DNA of 64,000 bases from an uncultured beta proteobacterium (lineage in GTDB: Bacteria; Pseudomonadota; Gammaproteobacteria; Burkholderiales; Burkholderiaceae_F), in contig CAVWFH010000008.1 of the NCBI GenBank assembly GCA_963754065.1, positions 152,670-216,669 on the forward strand, read 5' to 3'. Position 1 is the first letter of the stretch. Each line of letters opens with the position of its first letter. Positions 17,492 to 33,667 of this stretch are shown here, in pieces. The notes beneath the pieces were generated by a model, which had not been told where the DNA came from, made no database searches, and worked only from the letters and a program-made list of their open reading frames with translations. The position numbers and the translations under genes were made by a program.

Positions 17492-18664
17492 CTACTTTGC
17501 GCTTCGCTCAGGTCCTGTTGTCCACGGATAGCCGCCCTTGGCGCGCTCGAATCCAAGCTCGAGCAGCTTGCGCATGTAGGCGGGGTCGAATTTCTCGCTT
17601 GGACGATCCCTGAACGATGCGGGAATGTAGGCCAGGTTGTAATTCAGACCATCCCTTTGCGTGAGCAGATAGATCTGGGCGAGGTCACCGATTCCTTGTG
17701 TGCGGATCAGCGAATCGACGGTACGCATAAGGATCGGCACGATTCGACGCGTCACGCCCTCCCAGGCGAGCTCGCCATGCGCGTTGCTGATGATGTACAA
17801 GGACGGACGGCCCTGGATGCCGAGCCGGCGCTCCACCGCCTTCCAGTCCAGCCCACTCGGGTAAACAAATACCTGTGCGGTTACACCGCCGTCGACGTGG
17901 ATCTCATCGAAGGAGCGACCGTTCGCCTCTACGTCGATCATGACTGGCGGAAAAATCCCCGGAATCGATGCCGACGCCAAGATCACGTTGTGAATCAGGA
18001 CCCGCGCACGAGGTGATCCGCTGGCTGCAATCCGCGTGACGTTCCAGGTAACCGGACGTGCAGCATCCAAGTTGGTCGTGCCGACCAGCAAAGACCGTCC
18101 ACGACGGTATTCCCCCGCAAGCTCTGCGATCACCTCGTCGTTGATGTATTGCTCGATCAGCCGTCGCAAAGGGGCGGAACTCGTTGCAGAATCATTTCGC
18201 AGAATGTCGAGCAAGCCGCGCGGCTCGACCAGATCGGATGTCGACAGGTTTGTGTAGAGCTTACGCAGCGTCTCGTCGTACTTGGGGCCGAGGAATGCAA
18301 AGGGGGCGATCAACGCACCGGTACTGATTCCGGTGACGATGGTGAACTCCGGACGTGTGCCGTGCGCAGTCCATCCAATCAGCACTCCCGCCCCATAAGC
18401 CCCGTCGGCGCCTCCACCTGAGAGGGCAAGATAGTTATGTGGGCGATTGCTGATGCCTCCGAAATTGCTTGCGATAGCGGAATCGGGAAGCTTCAGCCAG
18501 GTATCGAAGCCGGCTGGCCGGGCATCGCCCCAGTAGCGAGCGCCAGGGACTCCCGGTATCGAGGCGGCGTCCGCGTACTCTTCTGGAAGTGGAGAAACCC
18601 GAGAGGGAGCCGACGCGCATGCGGTCAGAAGGGCGGCAGCAAGCAAGGCAGTAAGACGGTGCAC
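17492..18664 (-). CDS. Patatin-like phospholipase, probable lipoprotein
   Basis: LSGGGADGAYGAGVL (oxyanion), GISTGALIA (GxSxG) and VDGGV (Asp). A GTG at 18664 behind AGGAGA gives the signal peptide VHRLTALLAAALLTAC with a lipobox Cys. Confidence 0.8.
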   Translation of the reverse strand: MHRLTALLAAALLTACASAPSRVSPLPEEYADAASIPGVPGARYWGDARPAGFDTWLKLPDSAIASNFGGISNRPHNYLALSGGGADGAYGAGVLIGWTAHGTRPEFTIVTGISTGALIAPFAFLGPKYDETLRKLYTNLSTSDLVEPRGLLDILRNDSATSSAPLRRLIEQYINDEVIAELAGEYRRGRSLLVGTTNLDAARPVTWNVTRIAASGSPRARVLIHNVILASASIPGIFPPVMIDVEANGRSFDEIHVDGGVTAQVFVYPSGLDWKAVERRLGIQGRPSLYIISNAHGELAWEGVTRRIVPILMRTVDSLIRTQGIGDLAQIYLLTQRDGLNYNLAYIPASFRDRPSEKFDPAYMRKLLELGFERAKGGYPWTTGPERSAK

Positions 18665-18977
18665 ATTGTCTCCTATGCAGTCGGCGGCGGTGAGCGAAAT
18701 CGCGGAATCTGAAATTATCTCCGAGTGCAAAATTCACCCGGGTCGCTCGCAGGCAAGCTTCGATGGACTGAATGCGGCCAGGAGCGGTAGTTGGTCCAAC
18801 TGCGCTAAAGCGGTCAGTGAACGGGTAAATGGCCACTGAGTGGGAACGTCAGAAAGCGGCCGTCATCGACCAAGCAGCAGCGCATCTACGCCTCGACATA
18901 CCGCATCACCGTTCCCGCTCGCTAACTCGATGAGGAAATCGGCAGGAACTCAGAGTTTCCATGGGAACATCTTCGTC

Positions 18978-21349: not shown

Positions 21350-22459
21350 TCACGACAAGTCGACAGCGATCCGGCGTGCCGGGCGATCTCGGTGGGTCGC
21401 GCTTTCGATGGCGAGGTGGCTGAAATCAGTCACGACGTCGGCGCGCTCGAGCGAACCCATGAAGGCATGCACACAGCGAACGCCGTCGGATTCATTCGGA
21501 TCTGCGTCTTTCGCCTTGAGCAATGCGCGTGGGTCGCGAAGACTCCATAGCGCGGCGGCGATCTCGACATATTGGTTCCGGTCGGGAGCCGGCGCAAAGC
21601 TGGCCATGAAGCTCTTTGCAAGATCGAGCGCCAGCATGAAGTTCCCGATCGTCCAGTCCTGGGTCAGAAGCAGCGACGCGCGCCTGACTTTCCCGGCTGG
21701 ATCGCATTCGACTTCCAGCGCGATGTCCTGCTGGAACGCACCGGGTGCAAAGGTTCGTTGTGTACGGTCGCCAGCGGCGCGTTCGTCAAGCTGCTTCAGG
21801 CGAAAGAACTTGACGAACTCGCTGTCCTTCCACGAGTCGTAGCGGATGTCGAAGTCCTGACCCCGCACCCGCGCCCACTGGCTCGGAAAGATGAAGGCGG
21901 CAAACGCGACGCGTTCGAGCTCCTGCGCGGTCACGCTCCAGCGATTTCCTTCGGGCTGGGCATCGACCCCGGCCGGATTGTTTTCCTTCGCGAGCAGCGA
22001 GCGCTCGGGCCACGGGTCGTGATAAATGAAGCGATCGCGCCCACGGTCGTAGGCCGTGATGCGGATGCAGTGCCCGGTCTTTCCGTCATGGTAGGCGAGC
22101 GGTACGTTGACTTCCCCGTTGGCCGCCTGGATCGTCTCGAGCGCCTCGATGATCTGTATTGCCTTGCAGTTCACGAGCCGCGAGATGCGCTTTGTCGAGG
22201 CAGTGGGCAATGGGCGGGCAAGAAGGCAATACGGTTCGATGCCGAAGAGCGTATGGACGAGCCAGATCTGCTCGATCGTCGCACCGCCGCCTTTGGGGTC
22301 GGCGTAGATGCCAGCGTTTTCCGGCAGGACGGCGAACTGCTCATACGCACGCTCGATGAGCCGGGCCCACTCGGGATTGTTGCGACGGGCCTGTTCGAAC
22401 ACCTCGGGCGCTGGAGTGGAAGGCATTCCGCCAAAACGCGGCTCTGCATCGTTGGACAT
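21350..22459 (-). CDS. Hypothetical protein, 369 aa; possible papain-like (C39-like) peptidase fold in the N-terminal half
   Basis: The ATG at 22459 is preceded by GAGGAGGA. A candidate Cys helix start (VNCKAIQIIEAL) is followed by GHCIRITAYDRGRDRFIYHDPWP, resembling the His...Asp-Pro block of C39-like peptidases. The fold call is weak. Divergent from the astacin-CHAT gene. Confidence 0.4.
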   Translation of the reverse strand: MSNDAEPRFGGMPSTPAPEVFEQARRNNPEWARLIERAYEQFAVLPENAGIYADPKGGGATIEQIWLVHTLFGIEPYCLLARPLPTASTKRISRLVNCKAIQIIEALETIQAANGEVNVPLAYHDGKTGHCIRITAYDRGRDRFIYHDPWPERSLLAKENNPAGVDAQPEGNRWSVTAQELERVAFAAFIFPSQWARVRGQDFDIRYDSWKDSEFVKFFRLKQLDERAAGDRTQRTFAPGAFQQDIALEVECDPAGKVRRASLLLTQDWTIGNFMLALDLAKSFMASFAPAPDRNQYVEIAAALWSLRDPRALLKAKDADPNESDGVRCVHAFMGSLERADVVTDFSHLAIESATHRDRPARRIAVDLS

Positions 22460-22670
22460 GACGCACGTCCTCCTCGGTGACCGTTGCTGAAGCGGAAGGG
22501 CGCAGGCGATTGCGCACCCTGCGGCCCCGTCCGGGGCCATTGTGGCAGCGCGTCCCTCCGGCCGGTTGAAAACGCTCTGGTTCTGCGATCGGTCAAGACG
22601 CGGAACTTGGCAGCCTGATCAAAATGGGAACATGATTTGGTGTCGACCACGCCACTGATTCACACTGCTC

Positions 22671-25367
22671 ATGTCCAAGATCGTCTGCAGGCCGAGGGCA
22701 CTCACGCCGACCCAGGCGGCAAAGGTTCTACGTCGCAGCATCGAGATCAATCCGGCCAACGCGGATGAGCAGCGCGTCCTTGCCCGTACACCGGTCGGTC
22801 GGCGCGGCGGGCCCCGGCGCCTCGCGGTCGTGATCGGACACAAGTGGCCCGAGACCGGCGTTCGGCTGACCGTACAGTTCCTCGACAGTCCATCGCGCGA
22901 CCTGCGCGCCCGCATCCTGCTGCACATGAATGCCTGGTCGAAGACCACGAACGTGCAGTTCGTGGAGACCGCAAGCGTAGGGCAGGTGCGCATTGCACGG
23001 CTCGATGAGCCCGACGACATGGCGGGCTACTGGTCGTATGTCGGAACGGAGATCCTCGGGATCGAGGAAGATCAGCCGACCTTCAACCTCGAGGGCTTCA
23101 CGATGCGCACGCCCGAGGCGGAGTTCCGACGCGTGGTGCGGCACGAGGCCGGTCACACGCTGGGATTCGAGCACGAGCACATGCGCGCCGAGCTCATCAA
23201 GAAGATCGACCGGCGCAAGGCCTTCGCGTACTTCGACCGTACCGAAGGCTGGACCGCACAGGAGACCCTCGAGCAGGTCCTGACGCCGCTCGCCAAGTCG
23301 TCGATCATGGGGACGACCGAGTCCGATCCGCACTCGGTCATGTGCTACCAGATCCCCGGCGAAATCACGAAGGACGGCAAGACCATTCCGGGCGGCAAGG
23401 ACATCACCGCCAAGGACTACGCGTTCGCCGCGACCATCTACCCGCGTGCCAGGCCTGCGCGGGACACAACGGCGACCTCGCCTGACAGCGCGACATCGGT
23501 CCCTGCGGTCTGGACGCCACCGGCCCTCGTGACGCTGCCCACCGTCCTGGCGCCGGCCTTGGACGGCGACACCTTCCACATTGTCGTCATGGATCGGTTC
23601 GAGCCCGACGTGGCGGGGTCGGCTGCGGCGGCGAGGCGGCAAAAGTACGCGCGCGTCTTCGCAACCTACGGTGGTGCCCGGGTCACCATTCCGATGCGAC
23701 TCAATACCGACAAGGGCGAAGAGCACACGCGATTCCGCGCGATCATCGACATGCATGAGCGCATCAAGGCGTACACCAACCGGGATACGGGCACGCTGCC
23801 CAACGACGCGCAGCTGATCGCCTTCGGCACGGATCTGTTCGAGACGCTCTTCCAGGGTGACGTGCGGCGCTTGTACGACGAGGCGCGCTCGCGGCAGCAC
23901 GGCCGCAAGCTCGATTTCGTCTTCACGTCGATGGTGTCGTGGATCGCGGAGAAACCCTGGGAGTTCGCCTACGACGCATCACGCCGCAGCTTCCTCGCCA
24001 CCGAAGACATCCACTTCGTCCGCAATGTTCTGACCGCCATTCCCGCCGATGTGATCCCGCCGCGCGCGGGGCCGCTGCGGATCCTGGTGGCGTCGGCCCA
24101 GCCGGCGGGTTTTGGGCGCCTCTCGGTCGAGCAGGAACTCGAAGTCATCCGACGCGGATTCGATCCGCTGATTGACGCGGGGCTGGCCGAGGTCGAGGTG
24201 CTGCCCCGCGCCACGCCGAGCAGCATCCACGCACGGCTGTCCACGGGCAGCTTCACCATCGTGCACTTCATCGGCCATGGCGTGTTCAACGACAGGACGC
24301 AGGAAGGCTCGCTGGTGTTCGAAGATGCCTCCGGCGGCGAGTACCTGCTCGGCGAACGCTCGGTGCGCGAGATCTTTTGCCAGCGTGGGGTCACGCTGGT
24401 GTTCCTGAACGCGTGCCAGACGGGCTCCGGCGGTCGCGCCGACTTCAACAAGGGCGTGGCGCAGTCGCTCGTGGCGCATGGCCTGCCGGCGCTGGTCGCC
24501 AACCAGTACAGCGTGCTGGATTCGTCGGCCACCCAGTTTGCACAGCACTTCTACTGGGCGCTGGCACAGGGAATGACGATCGGGCAGGCGTCCCGCGAAG
24601 CACGCATTGCTGTCAACTACTCGCTGCAGGGCGAGATGATCGACTGGGCGGTTCCGGTCGTGTACGCCCGCAATCCGAACATGACGCTGTCGGCTCGACC
24701 GCGGGGGCTCACCGAACCCGCTTCGACCCAGGTGCGCGCGAAGAGCCGCCGCACCCTCATGCCCCGGTCGGTCGAGGTCGGGGTCTGGGACATCGACAAC
24801 GTCTTCCCGTCTCTGAAGGACACGCTGGCACGCCTGACGGGGGCGCAGGAGCAATTCGGTTTCGATCTGGTGGATCTCTCGGCCCCGATCGATGCGTGGG
24901 ACCTTGAGCAGAGGGCCGACGACGGCACGCCGTATCTGTGGGCGGAAAAACTCGCGAAGCGGCTGGGCCGCGTGCCGCTGGAACTCCACGTGAACGTTCT
25001 GGCCTGTGTCACGCGGCACTGGATGCGCGATGACGAGACCCTCAATATCTACGGCTGGTGGCCGGAAAAGGGCGAGGGGCCCGTGGTGATCTTCTCGGTG
25101 GCCGGCTTCGATGAGCTGCCGCCGGCAGGCCCTGAAACCGACCGCGCGATTGCGAACGTGCTGGTGTCCGGCCTGGCCGGCTATCTCGGCGGGATTGACG
25201 CGCATGAGCGTGGCGCGAAGGATTGTCCGATGGCCGCCAATGACGCGCGTGACCTGAAGCACATAGTGGGGCGGCAGCTGTTCGACCGCAGTTGCCGGGC
25301 GAAGCTGGCCAAGGTGATCCCGGACAAGCTGCCGGCTCTCGACGCATTGCTGAAGGTCTTCCGCTGA
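22671..25367 (+). CDS. Astacin-like metzincin fused to a CHAT (caspase-like) protease domain, 898 aa
   Basis: Extended zinc motif HEAGHTLGFEHEH with Met-turn SVMCY (astacin/M12A style) near 23141-23330. Canonical CHAT dyad HFIGHG (about 24264-24282) and FLNACQTG (about 24409-24425). A further ~230-aa C-terminal region is unassigned. No signal peptide. Confidence 0.85.
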   Translation: MSKIVCRPRALTPTQAAKVLRRSIEINPANADEQRVLARTPVGRRGGPRRLAVVIGHKWPETGVRLTVQFLDSPSRDLRARILLHMNAWSKTTNVQFVETASVGQVRIARLDEPDDMAGYWSYVGTEILGIEEDQPTFNLEGFTMRTPEAEFRRVVRHEAGHTLGFEHEHMRAELIKKIDRRKAFAYFDRTEGWTAQETLEQVLTPLAKSSIMGTTESDPHSVMCYQIPGEITKDGKTIPGGKDITAKDYAFAATIYPRARPARDTTATSPDSATSVPAVWTPPALVTLPTVLAPALDGDTFHIVVMDRFEPDVAGSAAAARRQKYARVFATYGGARVTIPMRLNTDKGEEHTRFRAIIDMHERIKAYTNRDTGTLPNDAQLIAFGTDLFETLFQGDVRRLYDEARSRQHGRKLDFVFTSMVSWIAEKPWEFAYDASRRSFLATEDIHFVRNVLTAIPADVIPPRAGPLRILVASAQPAGFGRLSVEQELEVIRRGFDPLIDAGLAEVEVLPRATPSSIHARLSTGSFTIVHFIGHGVFNDRTQEGSLVFEDASGGEYLLGERSVREIFCQRGVTLVFLNACQTGSGGRADFNKGVAQSLVAHGLPALVANQYSVLDSSATQFAQHFYWALAQGMTIGQASREARIAVNYSLQGEMIDWAVPVVYARNPNMTLSARPRGLTEPASTQVRAKSRRTLMPRSVEVGVWDIDNVFPSLKDTLARLTGAQEQFGFDLVDLSAPIDAWDLEQRADDGTPYLWAEKLAKRLGRVPLELHVNVLACVTRHWMRDDETLNIYGWWPEKGEGPVVIFSVAGFDELPPAGPETDRAIANVLVSGLAGYLGGIDAHERGAKDCPMAANDARDLKHIVGRQLFDRSCRAKLAKVIPDKLPALDALLKVFR

Positions 25368-25383
25368 AAGCGAGGTAATGCAC

Positions 25384-26559
25384 ATGGCAACGAAATCACG
25401 ATCGAAATCCAAGGCAAGTCCCAAGGCAAGGACCAAAGCGAGGCCGATGACCAAGCCGAAAGCGAAACCGGTCGCGAAGGCAAAGGCCCGAGGCAAGCTG
25501 CCAGCAAAGCCCGCCGCGGTGCCGCGCAAGGCGTTGGCCGTCGGCGGTCCTGTCACGCTCGAAGAGGCCCGCGCACTGTCGCGCGCGCGGCAGCCGAAGC
25601 GTGCGCTGCGGCGCGCCGTAGCCGGACCTCCCGCGACCCCGGCGAGCGTCGGGGCCGAACGCGAACGCCTCGAGCAGGAACGTCGTGCCGAACGTGCGCG
25701 CCGGATGCGCGAATACACGGAGACGATGGAAATCATGAAGCGGCGCGGAGCCCGACGGTCGGGTCCGAAGCGCGCGGCGACCGGTCGGCGCCGCGCGCCG
25801 AGCGCCGCCGCATCGTTCCAGCCGCTGCAGGTGTTCGCAGAAGGCGATTCGTGGTTCGACTATCCGCCGTTTCTCATCAAGGGCGGCGTCATTCCGCGGC
25901 TCGAGAGCCGCCTCGGCGTTCCGATCCTGAACATGGCGAAAGCCGGCGACGAGGTGCGTTTCATGCTCGGAGTCGAACAGCGCATTCGTCTGGCCGAGTG
26001 CCTGACGGAGGGCTGCCCGGCCGGCGGACCGTGGGACGCGCTGCTGTTCTCCGGCGGTGGCAATGACATTGTCGACAACCCGATGGCGCTGTGGGTGCGC
26101 GACTGGAATCCGGCCGTCCCGCCGGCAACGCTCATCAATCAACCGCGTTTCGATGTGGCGCTGGCGCTGGTGCGTGCCGGCTACGAAGACCTCATTACCC
26201 TGCGGGATCAGTTGAGTCCCGGCACCCACCTCGTGTTCCACGGCTACGACTTCGCGATCCCCGATGGCCGCGGCATCTGCCATCTGGGTCCTTGGCTGAA
26301 GCCGACCTTCGACCTGAGAGGTTTTCCGACGCGCGCCTCCGCGTTCGCGGTGGTGGAAGCGATGCTGAAGCAGTTTGCAGCGATGCTGACGACGCTGACC
26401 GCGCACCCGAAGGTGACCTTCATCAACGGCCAGGGAACCCTCGCGCCGCAGCCGAGCGCCTGGCACAACGAGCTCCATCCGAACAAGGACGGATTCGAGA
26501 AGTTTGCGGACCTCTTTCACCAGGAGCTGCGCGCGATATTCCCCGGTCGCGTGCTCTAG
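25384..26559 (+). CDS. SGNH/GDSL-type hydrolase (esterase/lipase) with a ~60-aa Lys/Ala/Pro-rich N-terminal tail
   Basis: SGNH blocks are present: I AEGDSWFDY, III FSGGGNDIV, V NELHPN. N-terminus is MATKSRSKSKASPKARTKARPMTKPKAKPVAKAKARGKLPAKP. Starts 17 nt after the astacin-CHAT stop, with GAGG 8 nt upstream of the ATG at 25384. Confidence 0.85.
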   Translation: MATKSRSKSKASPKARTKARPMTKPKAKPVAKAKARGKLPAKPAAVPRKALAVGGPVTLEEARALSRARQPKRALRRAVAGPPATPASVGAERERLEQERRAERARRMREYTETMEIMKRRGARRSGPKRAATGRRRAPSAAASFQPLQVFAEGDSWFDYPPFLIKGGVIPRLESRLGVPILNMAKAGDEVRFMLGVEQRIRLAECLTEGCPAGGPWDALLFSGGGNDIVDNPMALWVRDWNPAVPPATLINQPRFDVALALVRAGYEDLITLRDQLSPGTHLVFHGYDFAIPDGRGICHLGPWLKPTFDLRGFPTRASAFAVVEAMLKQFAAMLTTLTAHPKVTFINGQGTLAPQPSAWHNELHPNKDGFEKFADLFHQELRAIFPGRVL

Positions 26560-26595
26560 CGGCCGTTGCAGAGGTCAAGGCACGCGTTGAGGCGG

Positions 26596-28053
26596 TTACC
26601 GTGACCCCAGCTTCAGGTCGGCGATGAACTTCGGCGCGTCGGACTCGAGCTTGGCGATGACCTCGTTGCGGCGGCGTGCATAGAAGTCGGAGTTGAGCGT
26701 CATGCGCTGGGCTGCGGTCCAGAAGTTCACCTGCTGCGCGCCCCACTTGAAGAAGAGAAACCGCTTCCGTTCGTCGACGCTGCGGAAGTAGAACGCCCCG
26801 GCCGCCATGGTGAGGGCACCGTTGGCCGTACGCTGCACGGCGCCCAGCTGGAAGTTGCCGCTGCCTTCCATCGAGGAGTGGAAGTCGAAGAGTTGAATCG
26901 TGCCGTCGTCTTCCGCCAGCTTGGAAAGCGCCGCCACGGATTCCTGCAGCACCGCCAGCTGGTTCTGCGTGGCGATGGCCGTAATGATCGCCAGTGCCGC
27001 CTGGTCCATGCGGAACTCGCCCTCGGTCTGGTCAAAGCGGGTGAACGCAAACTGCTCGGTCGCCCAGCCCAGGTTCTCCAGGATCTCGACGTACTTCTGA
27101 TACCAGAACTGCGATTGCGTGAAGCGGTCGAAGGCACCACTCGCCCCGCGCTGCGCCAGCTGGATGGAATAGAGGACGTCGTTCTTTTCCTGTTCGCTGA
27201 CGCCTTCGACGAAGGACATCAGGCTGCCGACATTCACCTTCGCGTCGTAGGCGGGAGCCAGTCCCGCAGCGCGTCGGCGCATCGGTGCCACCTTCCTGGC
27301 GCGCGCCTTTCGACGCGAGGGAGCAGGGCTCGGTGCAGCCACGGCGGGCGGCAACGACAGGTCCCTTATGTAGGCGCCAACGCCCAGCGGCACGACGCCG
27401 TGATCCGGCATCGTTGACTCGGGGGCTCGCCTCGGTCCCTTGCCGCGTTGCATCCTCGAGGGCAGCGCGGGCGGTTCCGGTGCGATCAGGCGACCGGCCG
27501 TGTCGAACGTCGCCTCCAGGAGGAACGCCACCTCAGGTTGTGTGTAAGCGGGGTCCCAATGCGAGTTTTCCGGAACGTGGCAGTGACCGTAGTGTCCGCT
27601 CTCGCTGTCCCAGATCCCGGGGTCCCGGTTGTGCCCGCCCGGATCGCGGCCATTGCGTGCAGGCCGGGGCAGGCCAGCGGGCCACGTCCGCGGAACACCG
27701 TGCGTGGCTTCGATCCAGCGGCACAGGCGCGCCAGATTCGTGAGCGCGCGTCGATCCTTCGGCAGGTGCGCGAAGCCCACGAGTTCGATCTGCACCGCGG
27801 AATCGCGGTTGGTCTGCACACCGCCCGCTTCATTGCGCAGAGCTCGTGCGCCTTCCGACGTATCGATGTGCTGGAAAATGTTCGTCGCATCCACGGTGAA
27901 GTGAGGATCCGAACGGTTCGAGCGAAACGCGTTCATCGCGCCTTCGGCAGAGCTCCCCTCGGTCGTGTGATGGACGATCTTGAAGGGGCCGCCAAGGTTG
28001 GGACCGCATGATCCCGAAATGGGACGCCACGTCGCAAATGGACATCGTGCCAC
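26596..28053 (-). CDS. N-acetylmuramoyl-L-alanine amidase (Amidase_2/PGRP fold) fused to an unrecognised ~250-aa C-terminal domain
   Basis: N-terminal CPFATWRPISG...FKIVHHTTEGSS...DPHFTVD...FQHID...VQIELVGFA matches the Amidase_2 pattern. GTG at 28053 chosen because GGAGG lies 5 nt upstream. No signal peptide. A basic linker (SRRKARARKVAPMRRRAAG) is followed by a domain I cannot assign. Confidence 0.75.
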   Translation of the reverse strand: MARCPFATWRPISGSCGPNLGGPFKIVHHTTEGSSAEGAMNAFRSNRSDPHFTVDATNIFQHIDTSEGARALRNEAGGVQTNRDSAVQIELVGFAHLPKDRRALTNLARLCRWIEATHGVPRTWPAGLPRPARNGRDPGGHNRDPGIWDSESGHYGHCHVPENSHWDPAYTQPEVAFLLEATFDTAGRLIAPEPPALPSRMQRGKGPRRAPESTMPDHGVVPLGVGAYIRDLSLPPAVAAPSPAPSRRKARARKVAPMRRRAAGLAPAYDAKVNVGSLMSFVEGVSEQEKNDVLYSIQLAQRGASGAFDRFTQSQFWYQKYVEILENLGWATEQFAFTRFDQTEGEFRMDQAALAIITAIATQNQLAVLQESVAALSKLAEDDGTIQLFDFHSSMEGSGNFQLGAVQRTANGALTMAAGAFYFRSVDERKRFLFFKWGAQQVNFWTAAQRMTLNSDFYARRRNEVIAKLESDAPKFIADLKLGSR

Positions 28054-28277: not shown

Positions 28278-28866
28278 ATGCGCGTACTGCTGTTCAGTGG
28301 CCACATGGTCGACCGACCCGATCGCAGGCTGCCGCGGTTTCCGGCGAGCCGGGTCGCGGCGGCGGGGCGTGCCATCGAATGCCGAACTCGACAGGCTCGG
28401 TGTCGGGACAGAGGATCGGGCAGTGACCAGCGGAGCAAGTGGTGGCGATCTGCTGTTTGCACTGGGCTGTCTGGCCCGTGGCGCCGCCATCGAGGTCTAC
28501 CTGCCGTTTGCGCGAGACCGCTTCGTGCAGTCATCGGTGTTGCCCGGCGGTGCTCATTGGCTGCCGATGCTGGACGAAGTGCTGGCGCACCCGCTGACCG
28601 TGCTGCACGTGATGCCACCGGCTGACGACGACGCGGAGGATGGCAACGCCTTCGCACGTTGCAACCTGGCGATGCTGCAGCGTGCGCTGAAACTGGCCCG
28701 CGGGCCGATCGACCTGGTTTGCCTGTGGGACGGCAGCGTCGGTGACGGGCCAGGCGGTACGGAGCACATGGTCAGCTCCGTGCGCGCGCGAGGAGGGCGC
28801 GTGCACTGGATCGACATCCGGACGCTGCCGGACTCAACCGACGTGCGGCTCCCCGGCCAGGTATGA
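28278..28866 (+). pseudogene. Small Rossmann-like protein, possibly SLOG/LOG-like nucleotide-binding; frameshifted as sequenced
   Basis: MRVLLFSGHMVDRPDRRLPRFPASRVAAAGRAIE (frame of 28278) continues sensibly only in the 28069 frame (AELDRLGVGTEDRAVTSGASGGDLLFAL...LWDGSVGDGPGGTEHMV). The switch is near 28370-28385. The Gly-rich GASGGD and GxGGT blocks suggest a LOG/SLOG-type fold; this assignment is an inference. Confidence 0.45.
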
Positions 28867-29890
28867 GGCAGTGAACTCGGTCAGTCCGTGGCGGCCGCCG
28901 TTGACGTAGCGGCGCGCCAGCGCGAAGTCGCGGTCCAGCAGCGCCTGCTTGATCTTCAGTTCGCGATCCTTCAGGAAGCGCGCCAGCACGCGCGCCGCGA
29001 CCAGCGGTTCGTTGGCCCGTTCCGGTTCGCGCACCAGCAGTTCACCGAGTCCGAGCGCGCGCCCGATCTGTTCGTAGTTCGCGCGGCCCGTCAACTGCAC
29101 GAAACCACGACCCTTGTAGGCGGCGCCGTCATGCGGGCCTCGGTTGCCGAGGTCGCGCCGGTGGTCGTACAGGTCAAAAAACGGCGAGCGCGCGTTCGGT
29201 GACGTGTTGTAGCGCGAGCGGTACTCGTCGAGCGGAGTGAAGCGGCCGGTTTCTGCGCAGATCGTCGCCACGGCCATCAGCAGCATCGACTTGTCGACGA
29301 GTCCGAGCTCGGTCATGGCCTCGATCACCGCGGGCAGGTAGGACTTGATATTGCCGAGCGGAGCGCCCGGGCACATGGCTGAAACGACCTGCACCGTCAG
29401 TTCCCCGGTGGACGACGGCAGGCGGTCGTCGTCCATCAGCCCGAGCGCGGTCAGCGTCCGCGGGCCGGCGACGCCGTCTGGCAGCAGGCTCTCGCTCATC
29501 TGGAAGGCGATGACCGCGGCCTCGGTGCCTTGTCCGAATTCGCCGTCGATGGTGCCGCACTTGAACCCCTTCTCCGACAGGCGGCGCTGCAGGCGCGCGA
29601 CGGCGTCGCCCGTGGCGCCGAGCCGCAGGGTGGTGAACGCCGCCAGCGGTGCGCGTGTCGCGGCACGGGGCGCGCGACGCCCGGTCGGGCGGGGTGCCGG
29701 AGGCAGTCCTTTCGGGAGCGTGTGCGGCGCGCCGACGTCGAGGCGCCGGTGTCGCCACTACGGGCGATTTCGATGCGGTCCTGCGGGCTTTCGATGGCTT
29801 GCGTGGACTGGCAATGCGCTGCTTCTTCGCGCGCGAGATAACGCCGCGCCGGGTCCGTTCACTCCTGCTTCGCTTCTTTGCTGTGGCCAT
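28834..29890 (-). pseudogene. Peptidoglycan-binding domain + GH19-like muramidase/chitinase-fold lysin, with an Arg/Lys-rich N-terminal tail; frameshifted as sequenced
   Basis: GH19 signature YKGRGFVQLTGRANYEQIG. My own translation upstream of the annotated Met (29499) gives a complete PG_binding_1 domain (GDAVARLQRRLSEKGFKCGTIDGEFGQGTEAAVIAFQMSESLLPDGVAGPRTLTALGL). That frame has no ATG/GTG/TTG before its stop at 29758-29760. The only start is the ATG at 29890 in another frame (MATAKKRSRSERTRRGVISRAKKQRIASPRKPSKARR). The switch lies somewhere in 29650-29757. Confidence 0.7.
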
Positions 29891-30030: not shown

Positions 30031-30297
30031 TCAGTCCACGCACTCGATTCGATCCACCAGCAGCAGGTAGGAGGTCACCGTGCCGTCGCACTCGACGGCG
30101 TGACCCACGAAGCGCGTGAGCGTTGCATCGCCGTAGCTGGGTCCACCGCGCCGCCGCAACAGATAGCGCTGGTCTGCCGTCAGCAGGAACGGAGCATTGC
30201 GCTCGCTCTTGCTGCCACGCGCGAACTCGGCCTCGATGACGGTGCCGCGCAGTCCGTGCACGGCGCGAGGGGCGTTGTCGGCGTTGTCGCTCTTCAC
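30031..30297 (-). CDS. Small hypothetical protein (~88 aa), translationally coupled to the upstream C25-like gene
   Basis: The GTG at 30297 overlaps the TGA of the upstream gene (GTGA). The C-terminal part has protein-like composition (FLLTADQRYLLRRRGGPSYGDATLTRFVGHAVECDGTVTSYLLLVDRIE). The start is uncertain and the SD is weak. Confidence 0.45.
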   Translation of the reverse strand: MKSDNADNAPRAVHGLRGTVIEAEFARGSKSERNAPFLLTADQRYLLRRRGGPSYGDATLTRFVGHAVECDGTVTSYLLLVDRIECVD

Positions 30298-31823
30298 TTC
30301 TGCACGTAGACGCGGTAGCCGACCACTCGTGCAGCGGCTTCCTTCGCGACGATGGCGACACGCCCTCCGAGATCGCTCTTGCGTCGCCCCGGAAGCGCGG
30401 CAATCATCACGTGGTAGCGCTCGCACTGCATGCTCGCCTTGGCGAGCGAGCGCCGGGCCGGTAGACCACCACTGACTTCGAAAGTCATGAACCGCGCCTT
30501 GGCATCGAGCCCTACGGAACGCGCGATCGAACGCAGCGACTTTTCCACTTTACCGCTCGGCCGTTCCGTCGAGGCCCGCGATGCCGTCGGCTTGCTCTGC
30601 TGCAGCATGTCGCCCGACTGGCGCATCTTGGCGCGCCGCTCGGCCCGTGCGTAACGGCGGGCCTCAACGGGGTCGACACCGCGCGGCACGGTGGTCGGTG
30701 AGTCGCGTTCGACCGGATGGACGCTCGGGTCGCCGTAGATGCAGAACTGTGCCAGGGTCTTGAGATCGATCGGGTCCATTTCGGCCGACTGTCGCACGTA
30801 CTCCAGCCGTGCATCGAGCATCGCGCGACCGATCGAGGCGCCCTTGTGGATCTCGATCAGGAAGTACTGCGTGATCAGGTCTGCCGCGCCGTTGCCGCGC
30901 GCCGGACCATAGGCGATTGTCGTGCTGCCAAGGAAGCCATAGGCGCCCTGCGCGAGGTAGCTTTGGCAGATCGGCTCGTCGACTGCGAGCGCCACGGAGT
31001 CGTAGAGTTCGCCGCCATAGCAGCATTCGACTGCTGCGATCGTGCCTTGCGCTATCTTGCCGCGTGTGTGGCGTGTCGCCATGGCCACCGGGAACTTGCG
31101 GCGGTACTCACCGTAGAACTGCGGATCCGCCAGGCCCCCGTGGCAGTTGATGAAATGGCTCAGTCGACCCAGCGAACGGCTGCGCGCCGCGCTGCTGGGC
31201 GGCGAGATCGCGAGCGCGTCGTCGTTGCCGAAAATGTTCTCCAGGCTCTGCGCGGTCGAGTGTTTCCACAGCCGTACCGAAAGCGCGAAGCAGGGCGCGT
31301 ACTCCTTCAGCGGCCGGCAGCGGTAGTGCGTCGCGGTCGCCAGCAGCTTCAGCAGGTGCGCCGGTTCACGTGCGCCGGTCAGGTCGGGGAGGCGGGCGAC
31401 CACGCGCGTCGGGCCGATGAAATCGGCGATGTCGCGCGAGTACGCAGCGTCGCAGGCATACGGAATGTCGCTCCACGCCTTGGGATCGTCTTCCTTGTCA
31501 TCGGCATACACCGGGTTGGCCAGATCCTGATGCGGGATCACGTCGATCGAACCGAGCAGCATCAGGTAGTCGGGTTCGAGTGCGCGGAACACGCCATCGA
31601 TTGCGTCCTTGTTCTGCTTCGGATGCAGCGCATCGGTGACCACCGGAGCGTTCAGTCGCTTCATCGTGGCAACCGACGACAGGTCGACCAGTCGGGCAGC
31701 CAGCCCGCGCTTGCGGTCGGCGGCGATCAACGCGGCGACGGCGCCCATGACTTTCCGCAGGCCGGCGGCGCCGTACTTGGTGCGCAGTGCCGCCTTGTTG
31801 GTCACGATCAGCTTGTCCGTCAT
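30294..31823 (-). CDS. Clan-CD cysteine peptidase, C25 (gingipain)-like, 509 aa
   Basis: The N-terminal subdomain has the C25-typical block DYLMLLGSIDVIPHQ. Putative catalytic His (HFINCHGG) and Cys (AAVECCYGGEL) are in caspase/gingipain order. No signal peptide. ATG at 31823 (MTDKLIVTNK) preferred over 31847. Confidence 0.7.
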   Translation of the reverse strand: MTDKLIVTNKAALRTKYGAAGLRKVMGAVAALIAADRKRGLAARLVDLSSVATMKRLNAPVVTDALHPKQNKDAIDGVFRALEPDYLMLLGSIDVIPHQDLANPVYADDKEDDPKAWSDIPYACDAAYSRDIADFIGPTRVVARLPDLTGAREPAHLLKLLATATHYRCRPLKEYAPCFALSVRLWKHSTAQSLENIFGNDDALAISPPSSAARSRSLGRLSHFINCHGGLADPQFYGEYRRKFPVAMATRHTRGKIAQGTIAAVECCYGGELYDSVALAVDEPICQSYLAQGAYGFLGSTTIAYGPARGNGAADLITQYFLIEIHKGASIGRAMLDARLEYVRQSAEMDPIDLKTLAQFCIYGDPSVHPVERDSPTTVPRGVDPVEARRYARAERRAKMRQSGDMLQQSKPTASRASTERPSGKVEKSLRSIARSVGLDAKARFMTFEVSGGLPARRSLAKASMQCERYHVMIAALPGRRKSDLGGRVAIVAKEAAARVVGYRVYVQK

Positions 31824-31997
31824 CCCCTGGCCTTTGCGCAACGCCAAACCTCGGCACCATAGCGCTCGCTACGCACTTCGCAAAGTCCGGTGCCGCGTGT
31901 CGCGCCGCGAGTCCGGGCGCGCCGTCGGGCAGCGCTCATCCGCTAGACTGCGCGCCCGCGCGTCCAAGCTGACCCGATCCGACGCCGGCCACTTCCA

Positions 31998-33413
31998 ATG
32001 ACGACCGTCCGCACCCGCATCGCCCCCAGCCCGACCGGCATGCTGCACCTGGGCACTGCCCGCACGGCGCTGTTCTGCTGGGCATTCGCCCGCCATCACG
32101 GTGGCGAGTTCATCCTGCGCATCGAGGACACGGACCTCGAACGTTCGACCGAGGAAGCCGTGCAGGTCATCCTCGACAGCATGCAGTGGCTCGCCCTCGA
32201 CTACGACGAGGGCCCGGTGCGGCAGACGGGCCGGCTCGACCGATATCGCGCGGCGGTAGAGCGCCTGCTGGCCGATGGGAAGGCCTACCAGTGCTACGCG
32301 AGCAAGGCAGAACTCGAACAGCTGCGTGAGACGCAGATGGCGCGCGGCGAGAAACCGCGTTACGACGGTCGCTGGCGGCCGGAGAACGCGCGCGGCAAGA
32401 CGCCGCCGGCAGGCGTGAAGCCGGTTGTGCGCTTCCGCAATCCGGATGAAGGTGATGTCGGCTGGAACGACCTGGTCAAGGGTCCGATCGCCTTTTCCAA
32501 CACTGAACTCGACGACCTCGTGATCGCGCGCGGCGACGGCGTGCCGACCTACAACTTTGCCGTCGTGGTCGATGACATCGACATGGCGATCACACACGTG
32601 CTGCGCGGCGATGATCACGTCAACAACACGCCGCGCCAGATCAACATCTACCGCGCCTTGTTGGGCCCGGGCGCATCACTGCCGCAGTTCGGCCACCTGC
32701 CGATGATCCTCGGTCCCGACGGGCAGAAGCTGTCGAAGCGCCACGGCGCGGTGAGTGTGTTGCAGTACGACGTGGACGGATTCCTGCCCGAGGCGCTATT
32801 CAACTACCTCGCACGGCTGGGCTGGAGCCACGGCGATGCCGAGAAGTTCACGCGGGAGCAACTGGTCGAGTGGTTCGACCTCGAGCACGTCAACCGCGCG
32901 CCGGCACAGTACAACCTCGACAAGCTGCTGTGGCTGAACGGCGAGTACATGAAGGAAGCCGACAATGCGCGCCTCGCGCGGCTTGCAGCGCCGCGTATCG
33001 AAGCGCGCGGCGGAGTGCTCGCGAACGGACCGGCACTCGACCGCGTCGTCGCCCTGCTGAAGGACCGTTCGCGGACCCTGAACGAACTGGCCGACGCAGC
33101 CTTGCTGTTCTATCGCGACGTCGCGCGCGAACCGGCACTGCTCGCCGAACACCTGCAGGGTGTCAGCCGGGACGCCGTTCGGATGTTCCGCGAGCGGGCC
33201 GTTGGGTTGGTGTGGGAGCGGACTGCCATCAATGGCCTGATCAAGCAGGTTGTCGGAGAACTGAAGCTCAAGATGCCGCAGGTCGCGGTGCCGTTGCGTG
33301 TGGCCGTCACCGGCCAGACGCAGACGCCGTCGATCGATGCGGTGCTCGAACTGATTGGACGCGACACCGTGGTGACTCGGCTCGATGCCGCGCTCGAGCA
33401 GATCGTGGGGTAG
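31998..33413 (+). CDS. gltX: Glutamate--tRNA ligase
   Basis: Class I aaRS motifs: HIGH variant ([14 protein letters not shown]) and KMSKS (KLSKRHG). 471 aa, followed by a tRNA-Ala/tRNA-Glu pair as in many beta-proteobacteria. Confidence 0.95.
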
Positions 33414-33426
33414 GGGAGCAGCTCCA

Positions 33427-33456
33427 TTGTGATGTCGATCTGAAAACGGCTATACT
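33427..33456 (+). promoter_or_regulatory. Putative sigma-70 promoter for the tRNA-Ala/tRNA-Glu operon
   Basis: TTGTGA (33427-33432), an 18-nt spacer, then TATACT (33451-33456). A GC-rich discriminator (CCGCGGC) follows, and the tRNA starts 15 nt further on. Confidence 0.5.
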
Positions 33457-33470
33457 CCGCGGCTCTCCGT

Positions 33471-33546
<76 letters not shown>

Positions 33547-33591
33547 AAGACCGCTTCCAAAGCCCGCTCACGCGGGCTTTGAATTGAAACG

Positions 33592-33667
33592 GTCCCCTTC
33601 GTCTAGAGGCCTAGGACACCGCCCTTTCACGGCGATAACAGGGGTTCGAATCCCCTAGGGGACGCCA
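33592..33667 (+). tRNA. tRNA-Glu (anticodon UUC)
   Basis: 76 nt, near-identical in pattern to enterobacterial tRNA-Glu (GTCCCCTTCGTCTAGAGGCCTAGGACACCGCCCTTTCACGGCG...). Anticodon loop CTTTCAC, encoded CCA. Confidence 0.95.

Follow-up and report, generated by a model that had tools for sequence, protein, structure and literature searches.

A conserved astacin-CHAT fusion protein with an archaemetzincin-like domain and a linked SGNH hydrolase gene, a candidate protease-activated effector system

Domain composition of the astacin-CHAT protein

We analyzed a 64,000-nucleotide stretch of DNA (hereafter, the window) from an uncultured soil betaproteobacterium (contig CAVWFH010000008.1, positions 152,670 to 216,669 of the forward strand). 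The protease gene that is the subject of this study occupies positions 22671 to 25367 of the plus strand and encodes an 898-amino-acid protein, in which the listing of open reading frames, Pfam searches, homologue alignments, and a structure model delineate an astacin metalloprotease domain, a CHAT caspase-like cysteine protease region, and a C-terminal domain that resembles archaemetzincins. A gene encoding an SGNH/GDSL hydrolase follows on the same strand. The sequence-only reading of the window had predicted the 898-amino-acid reading frame at this site, a complete astacin zinc site with a Met-turn, and a complete CHAT His/Cys dyad, and all three are confirmed by Pfam scores above the cut-offs and by the invariance of the quoted residues. 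Residue conservation was scored in an alignment of 40 full-length fused homologues from several phyla, and motifs in the wider family were checked with regular-expression patterns in 56 diverse representatives.

The astacin catalytic domain (M12A, myroilysin-like) spans residues 51 to 262 (22821 to 23456) and matches the Pfam Astacin family with 26.0 bits when the whole protein is searched and with 29.4 bits when its first third is (curated cut-off, 22.5). Its zinc motif, HEAGHTLGFEHEH (23142 to 23180; H158-E-A-G-H162-T-L-G-F-E-H168-E169-H170), fits HExxHxxGxxHE, including the family-specific Glu, and residues H158, E159, H162, H168, E169, and H170 are invariant. So are residues S222, M224, C225, and Y226 of the Met-turn SVMCY (23334 to 23348), in which the SxMxY pattern with its Tyr zinc ligand is present and which pairs with SIMHY of myroilysin. 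Myroilysin (PDB 5gwd, 5czw, and 5zjk) is the closest solved relative (E = 1.3e−23 with the single sequence and 1.2e−28 with the family profile; Foldseek template modeling [TM] score, ~0.8), and the two proteins are homologous over the whole catalytic domain, with the HExxHxxGxxHE motif and the Tyr-bearing Met-turn common to both.

The likeness extends to the maturation of the enzyme. In the alignments, mature myroilysin (5zjk) starts opposite residues 51 and 52 of the 898-amino-acid protein, and the myroilysin maturation site, R39|G40, pairs with R50|L51, so that in both proteins an Arg stands at the aligned position after which the myroilysin propeptide is cut off. The alignments and the model delimit a predicted propeptide of residues 1 to 50 (22671 to 22820). 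It carries Cys6 (22686 to 22688), which is invariant among the fused members and could act as a switch, as a propeptide Cys could in myroilysin, and it ends in the segment G43-R-R-G-G-P-R-R50 (22797 to 22820). R49 and R50 are invariant both in the fused members and in stand-alone astacins of the family, and the rest of the segment is at least 90% conserved; residues 34 to 55, which include this Arg-Arg loop, have predicted local distance difference test (pLDDT) values below 50 in the AlphaFold model. Because the stretch is conserved within a flexible loop, it looks like a recognition or cleavage motif. The astacin domain is probably itself a zymogen with a propeptide of ~50 residues, in which Cys6 may contact the zinc site. 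In myroilysin, the mature N terminus docks on the family-specific Glu (PMC9848320, PMC9629494).

In contrast to myroilysin, which is a secreted single-domain elastase, the astacin domain described here is fused to CHAT and lacks a signal peptide: hydropathy analysis detected neither a signal peptide nor a transmembrane segment in the 898-amino-acid protein (highest value over the first 30 hydropathy windows, 0.14). The protein is predicted to be cytoplasmic, unlike all characterized astacins.

The CHAT region (residues 300 to 683; 23568 to 24719) scores 123 bits in Pfam (cut-off, 24). Its H536-G537/C582 dyad is intact, with His536 in HFIGHG (24264 to 24281) and Cys582 in FLNACQTG (24402 to 24425), and residues H532, G535, H536, N580, and C582 are invariant. 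The Cys motif was found in all 56 representatives of the wider family and the His motif in 55 of them. Fold comparison with Foldseek places the region with SAVED-CHAT (8tl0), with separases, and with DdvA, an anti-sigma factor; the match to 8tl0 was also recovered by profile search (E = 4.9e−9). NCBIfam additionally gave a weak match of the protein to HetF.

The C-terminal third (residues 698 to 898; 24762 to 25364) has no Pfam match at E values up to 10, M54 included, and no match in a profile search of the PDB; its kinship is therefore visible only by fold comparison. The model of these ~200 residues is confident (pLDDT, 90), and its five best PDB fold matches are archaemetzincins (3lmc, 3zvs, 4axq, and 2x7m; E of ~1e−6, TM scores of 0.57 to 0.74), followed in the Foldseek list by other metzincins. 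The archaemetzincin signature is HEXXHXXGXXHCX4CXMX17CXXC (PMC3427221), and a degenerate version of it, L835AGYLGGIDAH845-E-x5-C852-P-M854-x17-D872-x-x-C875, lies at 25173 to 25295. The domain thus keeps the Met-turn, the C-x-M-x17-C-x-x-C spacing, and part of the Cys-rich zinc site: with E846 and D872 at two of the four Cys positions, two Cys are left, C852 and C875, in a stretch that reads C852-P-M854, exactly 17 residues, and D872-x-x-C875. Many of the 56 representatives retain the full C-x-x-C and the H..C-P-x-x17-C-x-x-C spacing of archaemetzincins. Unlike in archaemetzincins, HExxH is absent from this domain in all 56; in the window protein, LAGYLGGIDAH stands in its place, with LAGYLGGI for HExxHxxG. 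Because only the third His of HExxHxxGxxH remains, the domain cannot be a zinc protease, and we regard it, judging by these residues, as a dead protease, in which a metal site may persist for structural reasons. These results bear out a faint resemblance of a DCPM...C pattern to archaemetzincins, without an HExxH, that had been noticed in this part of the sequence. In a profile search of 1.84 billion representative proteins, the domain was found in 293 clusters at 50% identity; among the 150 matches listed, it is always C-terminal, and it lies behind CHAT wherever the architecture was checked.

The linked SGNH hydrolase gene

The SGNH gene lies within an open reading frame of 393 codons (25378 to 26559, plus strand). 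Homologue N termini of the form MA..K and a GAGG Shine-Dalgarno sequence at 25372 to 25375, 8 nucleotides 5′ of the start codon, place its start at the ATG at 25384, 17 nucleotides past the protease stop codon, and the encoded protein has 391 amino acids. The Lipase_GDSL_2 match is above the cut-off (34.6 versus 32.9 bits). In the nucleophile block GDSW (25843 to 25854), G156 and S158 are invariant among the homologues and D157 is nearly so; G226-G-G-N229-D230 of the GGGND block (26053 to 26067) and His367 (26476 to 26478) are invariant. The acidic residue before the His is Glu365 at position −2, not an Asp at position −3. The spacing and the identity of this gene agree with the sequence-only reading.

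A promoter-like site (TTGGCA-18-CATGAT; 22607 to 22636, plus strand) lies 5′ of the protease gene; it is a consensus match of a kind expected 0.4 times in shuffled sequence. A consensus scan of positions 22300 to 26800, which include the junction of the protease and SGNH genes, gave no second site. The two genes form an operon, from which the protease and the SGNH esterase are predicted to be co-transcribed.

The SGNH catalytic domain had been described as preceded by about 60 residues rich in Lys, Ala, and Pro. A variable tail rich in Lys, Arg, Ala, and Pro is indeed present (~55 residues), but the whole extension is longer (~150 residues; 25384 to 25827) and includes ~95 conserved residues. 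The conserved part holds an invariant PVTL.EA motif (GPVTLEEA in the window; 25546 to 25569) and an MKRRGARR segment, in which a helix ending in KRRGARR (25738 to 25758) is followed by a linker. This RRG-type motif is similar to the site at which the astacin domain is predicted to be matured. The suggestion that the extension serves as a propeptide or as a tether for the protease is made more plausible, and no more than that, by these features.

Two classes of SGNH protein occur beside the protease. Class 1 proteins are 55 to 90% identical to the window protein, and class 2 proteins are ~33% identical in the catalytic part only. A basic tail, a conserved helix, an RRG or RRRG motif, a short linker, and the GDSW block follow one another in both classes.

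Distribution and second architecture of the family

The occurrence of astacin and CHAT in a single reading frame is a conserved architecture and not an accident. We found more than 120 full-length homologues with at least 61% identity, most of which are unnamed or annotated as CHAT domain-containing proteins, and 171 matches among 185,579 species-representative genomes (one genome per species). The matches span the Beta-, Alpha-, and Gammaproteobacteria, Acidobacteriota, Verrucomicrobiota, Planctomycetota, Gemmatimonadota, Nitrospirales, and Binatia; cultured carriers include Bradyrhizobium sp. DOA9, Taklimakanibacter albus, and Rudaea sp. The nearest relatives are encoded by metagenome-assembled genomes of uncultured betaproteobacteria (88 to 94% identity), and a look-up of the exact sequence returned no 100%-identical protein. 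No description of the pairing was known to the sequence-only reading, and the literature searched yielded no paper on an astacin-CHAT protein; searches for CHAT with astacin, CHAT with SGNH, and DUF7379 found no relevant paper. Carriage on mobile elements was considered and rejected, as the plasmid and phage collections contain no full-length member; what matched on plasmids were astacins encoded on their own or CHAT proteins unrelated to the family.

The SGNH gene is a syntenic partner of the protease in other genomes as well. Among the 55 astacin-fused loci with enough flanking sequence, 41 have an SGNH homologue directly adjacent, and these cover at least seven phyla and come from Proteobacteria, Acidobacteriota, Verrucomicrobiota, Planctomycetota, Gemmatimonadota, and Nitrospirales. 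The adjacent gene is nearly always downstream on the same strand, usually with a gap of −8 to +28 nucleotides; in two loci, it is upstream. When the neighborhoods of 78 loci were clustered, the SGNH gene alone was widely conserved. In two Rhizobiales loci (L006 and L008), its place is taken by a gene for a 381-amino-acid serine hydrolase of the Beta-lactamase family, which has a signal peptide and overlaps the protease stop codon and which may be a third kind of serine-hydrolase partner. A 1,901-amino-acid "fusion" in locus L027 was rejected as an artifact of an out-of-frame open reading frame.

The family also has a second architecture. In three loci (L059, L062, and L078), a separate astacin gene of ~280 codons lies directly upstream of a gene for a protein of ~1,140 amino acids, which consists of DUF7379, CHAT, and the C-terminal domain. 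DUF7379 is an alpha/beta-hydrolase-like domain (136 bits in the ~1,140-amino-acid proteins). With sequences clustered at 50% identity, this form is the more diverse of the two. Its THSRGG serine motif and its CHAT dyad are preserved, and one DUF7379-type family member has an N-terminal WD40 propeller. The stand-alone astacins carry an invariant GRRGGPRR in all three loci and the propeptide Cys in L062 and L078. An adjacent SGNH gene was found in none of the four second-architecture loci with enough flank (none of six when short flanks are included), compared to 41 of the 55 astacin-fused loci (Fisher's exact test, P ~ 0.008). That a metalloprotease, the pair of CHAT and dead metzincin, and a serine hydrolase are kept together though fused differently is strong evidence of their joint function.

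The Amidase_2-X260 gene and the surrounding island

A third linked gene lies on the minus strand at 26596 to 28053, convergent with the protease operon, and probably starts at the GTG at 28053 (MARCPF). Its product joins an endolysin/AmpD-like Amidase_2 domain (27550 to 27978; Pfam, with matches to endolysin families in PHROGs) to an unannotated domain of ~260 amino acids, delimited by homologue comparison, that we call X260 (26599 to 27411). The linker between them holds a conserved RRGKG..STMPDH segment. The gene adjoins the protease in 13 loci, Gammaproteobacteria included, and many Proteobacteria show the linkage; in two loci (L034 and L044), it heads an operon of three genes. X260 occurs mostly as a free-standing protein of ~260 amino acids. 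In all five cases that we looked up (L079 to L083), the gene that follows it encodes CHAT, usually fused to or followed by AAA_16/STAND and tetratricopeptide repeat (TPR) modules, at a distance of 32 to 74 nucleotides in four cases and ~1 kb in the fifth. X260 is thus a CHAT-linked family of its own, and its members may be effectors of a new class under the control of CHAT. A profile search of PDB sequences gave no match for X260, to gasdermins or otherwise, and PADLOC gave a single sub-threshold match for one of three homologues (PDC-M05B, E = 0.0085).

Beyond this gene, the island contains a gene for a GH19-like lysozyme (28834 to 29890, minus strand) that is split into two overlapping frames by a frameshift or an assembly error. 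Its intact ortholog in locus L047 has 356 amino acids, with a Lys- and Arg-rich tail of ~97 residues, PG_binding_1 (59.6 bits), and a GH19/endolysin-like domain; the tail begins with MATLKKRSRK and resembles the start of the SGNH protein, MATKSRSKSK. Between the amidase and GH19-like genes, at 28278 to 28866 on the plus strand, two overlapping frames without a Pfam match (start MRVLLFSGHMVDRPD, continuation GASGGDLLFALGC) have the appearance of a single frameshifted gene, whose second part is conserved in loci L003 and L047. Positions 30294 to 31847 (minus strand) encode a 517-amino-acid protein that these same two closest relatives share and no others; a weak Peptidase_C25 match (gingipain-like, clan CD) and the motifs HFINCHGG and VECCYGG suggest that it is a second caspase-fold protease of the island. 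At this end, the island is bounded by gltX (31998 to 33667, plus strand), followed by tRNA-Ala and tRNA-Glu genes. Because the amidase gene abuts gltX in some relatives, the segment with the GH19-like and C25-like genes is a variable insert. On the other side of the protease, a divergent gene at 21350 to 22540 (minus strand) encodes a 396-amino-acid protein with a weak Peptidase_C39_2 match and lies beside the protease in the nine closest relatives only; 4 kb upstream of the locus, positions 17492 to 18730 (minus strand) encode a patatin-like phospholipase (84.6 bits). The amidase and GH19-like matches to endolysin families raised the possibility of a prophage lysis cassette, which we rejected, given that phage structural genes are absent and that conservation of the two genes with the protease is limited to close relatives.

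Could these enzymes be toxins against competing bacteria? An esterase, an Amidase_2 protein, and a GH19-like muramidase are encoded together, none of them with a signal peptide, and the similar basic tails on two of them (MATKSRSK and MATLKKRSRK) could be a delivery tag; the cluster would then export them like the type VI Tle, Tae, and Tge effectors, with the protease processing them before export. We consider this very improbable, given that no secretion-system, PAAR, VgrG, Rhs, or small immunity genes are conserved nearby and that, among the relatives, only the closest have the GH19-like and C25-like genes.

The same cell wall-directed repertoire of Amidase_2, a GH19-like enzyme with PG_binding_1, and SGNH also fits an operon for housekeeping or envelope turnover without any role in conflict, in which a cytoplasmic AmpD-like amidase, an esterase (for example, for the de-O-acetylation of muropeptides), and peptidases would together recycle peptidoglycan or carry out developmental proteolysis of the HetF/separase type. 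The chromosomal position near gltX and tRNA genes, the very high conservation (at least 60% identity across phyla), and the weak HetF match are in keeping with such a role. Nevertheless, the occurrence of the family is patchy, with its 171 matches scattered over many phyla, and its neighborhood is not conserved apart from the SGNH gene. X260 is linked to STAND-type CHAT proteins, some relatives have defense-type neighbors, and a zymogen combined with a dead protease domain suggests tight latency over constitutive metabolism. On this evidence, a housekeeping function appears quite improbable.

A proposed proteolytic activation mechanism

RRG-type motifs recur at corresponding places in the hydrolases of the family. 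One lies N-terminal to the astacin domain (GRRGGPRR), one N-terminal to SGNH (KRRGARR in class 1, ARRRG in class 2), and one in the linker between Amidase_2 and X260 (RRGKG); in the DUF7379 proteins, RRG[LIV] is found at a fixed distance of ~80 residues before the oxyanion motif in ~30 of 39 sequences. We tentatively propose, with confidence somewhat short of even, that the family is the module of a conflict or cell-death system in which CHAT drives activation by proteolysis. The pair of CHAT and dead metzincin would be its constant core, a switchable processing protease that, upon a trigger, would cut the conserved Arg-Arg-Gly-type sites on the N-terminal side of every hydrolase module. Cleavage at or near R50|L51 would remove the propeptide bearing Cys6 and unmask the zinc site of the astacin domain, in cis in the window protein and in trans where the astacin is encoded by a separate gene. 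Further cuts would separate the N-terminal extension from the SGNH esterase and would probably also detach X260 from Amidase_2. Once activated, these hydrolases would damage proteins, lipids, or the cell envelope, with abortive infection or programmed cell death in an anti-phage conflict system as the likely role.

Several known systems offer models for such a cascade. A CHAT protease activates a bacterial gasdermin (10.1101/2021.06.07.447441), SAVED-CHAT activates PCaspase, a second protease (10.1101/2023.06.23.546230), and the caspase-like effector of type IV Thoeris is strictly Arg-specific (10.1101/2024.10.24.620036). The role in conflict or cell death is suggested by the link of X260 to CHAT and STAND, by the WD40-fused relative, and by the neighbors of the operon in seven relatives (L001, L014, L044, L046, L050, L069, and L077). 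In these seven loci, a context that the window itself lacks, three genes lie upstream of the operon, which encode a metallo-beta-lactamase-fold protein (PADLOC LmuA, 184 bits; also Avs1a and RTasMBL), a protein of ~1,000 amino acids without a family match, and a patatin-like phospholipase; by gene content, this surrounding appears defense island-like.

A number of observations weigh against this proposal. PADLOC found no known defense system at the locus, and its SAVED_CHAT match covers the CHAT part only (profile positions 101 to 280 of 498); for the protease and the SGNH protein, neither PADLOC nor PHROGs gave a system-level match. Neither a conserved NTPase nor an obvious sensor was found near the protease when the 78 neighborhoods were clustered. 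For a protein of a conflict system, the sequence identity between phyla is unusually high, and neither the plasmid nor the phage collections searched yielded a full-length member. The RRG tripeptide is not rare, at 2.7 per 1,000 residues in the DUF7379-type homologues; given that it is common in Arg- and Gly-rich proteins, the motif argument rests on conservation and position, not on rarity. Craspase cuts after Leu or Met. The Runella CHAT protease, which provides the one CHAT cleavage site that we found in the literature, cuts after Leu, and in view of both enzymes the Arg specificity of the core is an assumption. Finally, 14 of the 55 astacin-fused loci lack an adjacent SGNH gene, and the esterase is therefore not obligatory.

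That the protease can stand alone in these 14 loci is also what would be expected if the two proteases were themselves the executioners, acting promiscuously on cellular or phage proteins, with the SGNH protein as an unprocessed parallel co-effector or a regulator whose extension serves docking or localization. In favor of this view are the invariance of both catalytic sites and the precedent of caspase-like effectors that are promiscuous and Arg-specific (10.1101/2024.10.24.620036), with the type IV Thoeris caspase and PCaspase as models; moreover, the invariant PVTL.EA motif of the SGNH extension looks more like an interaction motif than a linker. This explanation leaves two regularities unaccounted for, namely, the mutually exclusive placement of a serine hydrolase, in an adjacent gene or within the fusion, and the presence of an RRG-type motif before every hydrolase module. 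We consider it rather unlikely.

The proposal of CHAT-driven activation can be extended further, to a doubtful but specific form. The CHAT initiator and a latent, cysteine-switch astacin executioner would then constitute, in one polypeptide, a cell-death or anti-phage module free of NTPases, in which the dead archaemetzincin would act as a sensor or substrate presenter, the RRG motifs would be "cut-here" tags that arm the SGNH or DUF7379 and Amidase_2-X260 proenzymes for the degradation of envelope and lipids, and X260 would be a family of CHAT-activated effectors analogous to gasdermins.

Relationship to known systems and significance

The family is best accommodated as a new variety of CHAT-centered, protease-activated effector system. 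As in the gasdermin operons, SAVED-CHAT-PCaspase, and Craspase-Csx30, a CHAT protease is encoded beside a latent effector; these systems provide precedents for cascades in which one protease activates another and for cell death as an outcome, and the Foldseek and profile matches of our protein reach SAVED-CHAT itself (8tl0). In contrast to these systems, the 898-amino-acid system has no gasdermin, SAVED, TPR, CRISPR, or STAND module. No PADLOC or Pfam match to gasdermins was found among its neighbors, and no cas genes were found among the open reading frames of the window. Its partner is an SGNH esterase, its second protease is a metalloprotease fused in cis, and its accessory domain is a dead metzincin.

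The DUF7379-CHAT relatives further resemble the effector fusions described by Kaur et al. in 2020 (PMC7159879), in that a caspase-superfamily protease is joined to an alpha/beta-hydrolase (by hydrolase class) and domains are swapped in the style of effectors. Unlike in those systems, no MoxR, vWA, VMAP, iSTAND, or GTPase component is conserved beside the astacin-CHAT family: across the 78 loci, no linked NTPase switch (MoxR-vWA-VMAP, STAND, or GTPase) is conserved, and STAND ATPases were found only with the free-standing relatives of X260. The family is unusual in three respects: its astacin is a putative intracellular zymogen, its dead archaemetzincin domain is dedicated to CHAT, and its partners are esterases.

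The residues singled out here (C6, R49/R50, E159, and C582 of the protease, and R123/G124 of the SGNH protein) offer targets for mutagenesis, and the N-extended SGNH proteins and X260 are two candidate families of protease-activated effectors. If the proposed activation is correct, a mixed cascade of cysteine protease and metalloprotease within one protein would join the caspase-like immune and cell-death systems of bacteria, without a nucleotide-signaling or STAND component. The distribution of the family also bears on the evolution of astacins. Bacterial astacins have been reviewed as rare, host-associated, few in number, and acquired from animal hosts (PMC9848320), whereas the astacin-CHAT family is found in free-living soil phyla. 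In contrast to the current view, the family shows a large intracellular radiation of astacin-family proteases in free-living soil bacteria.

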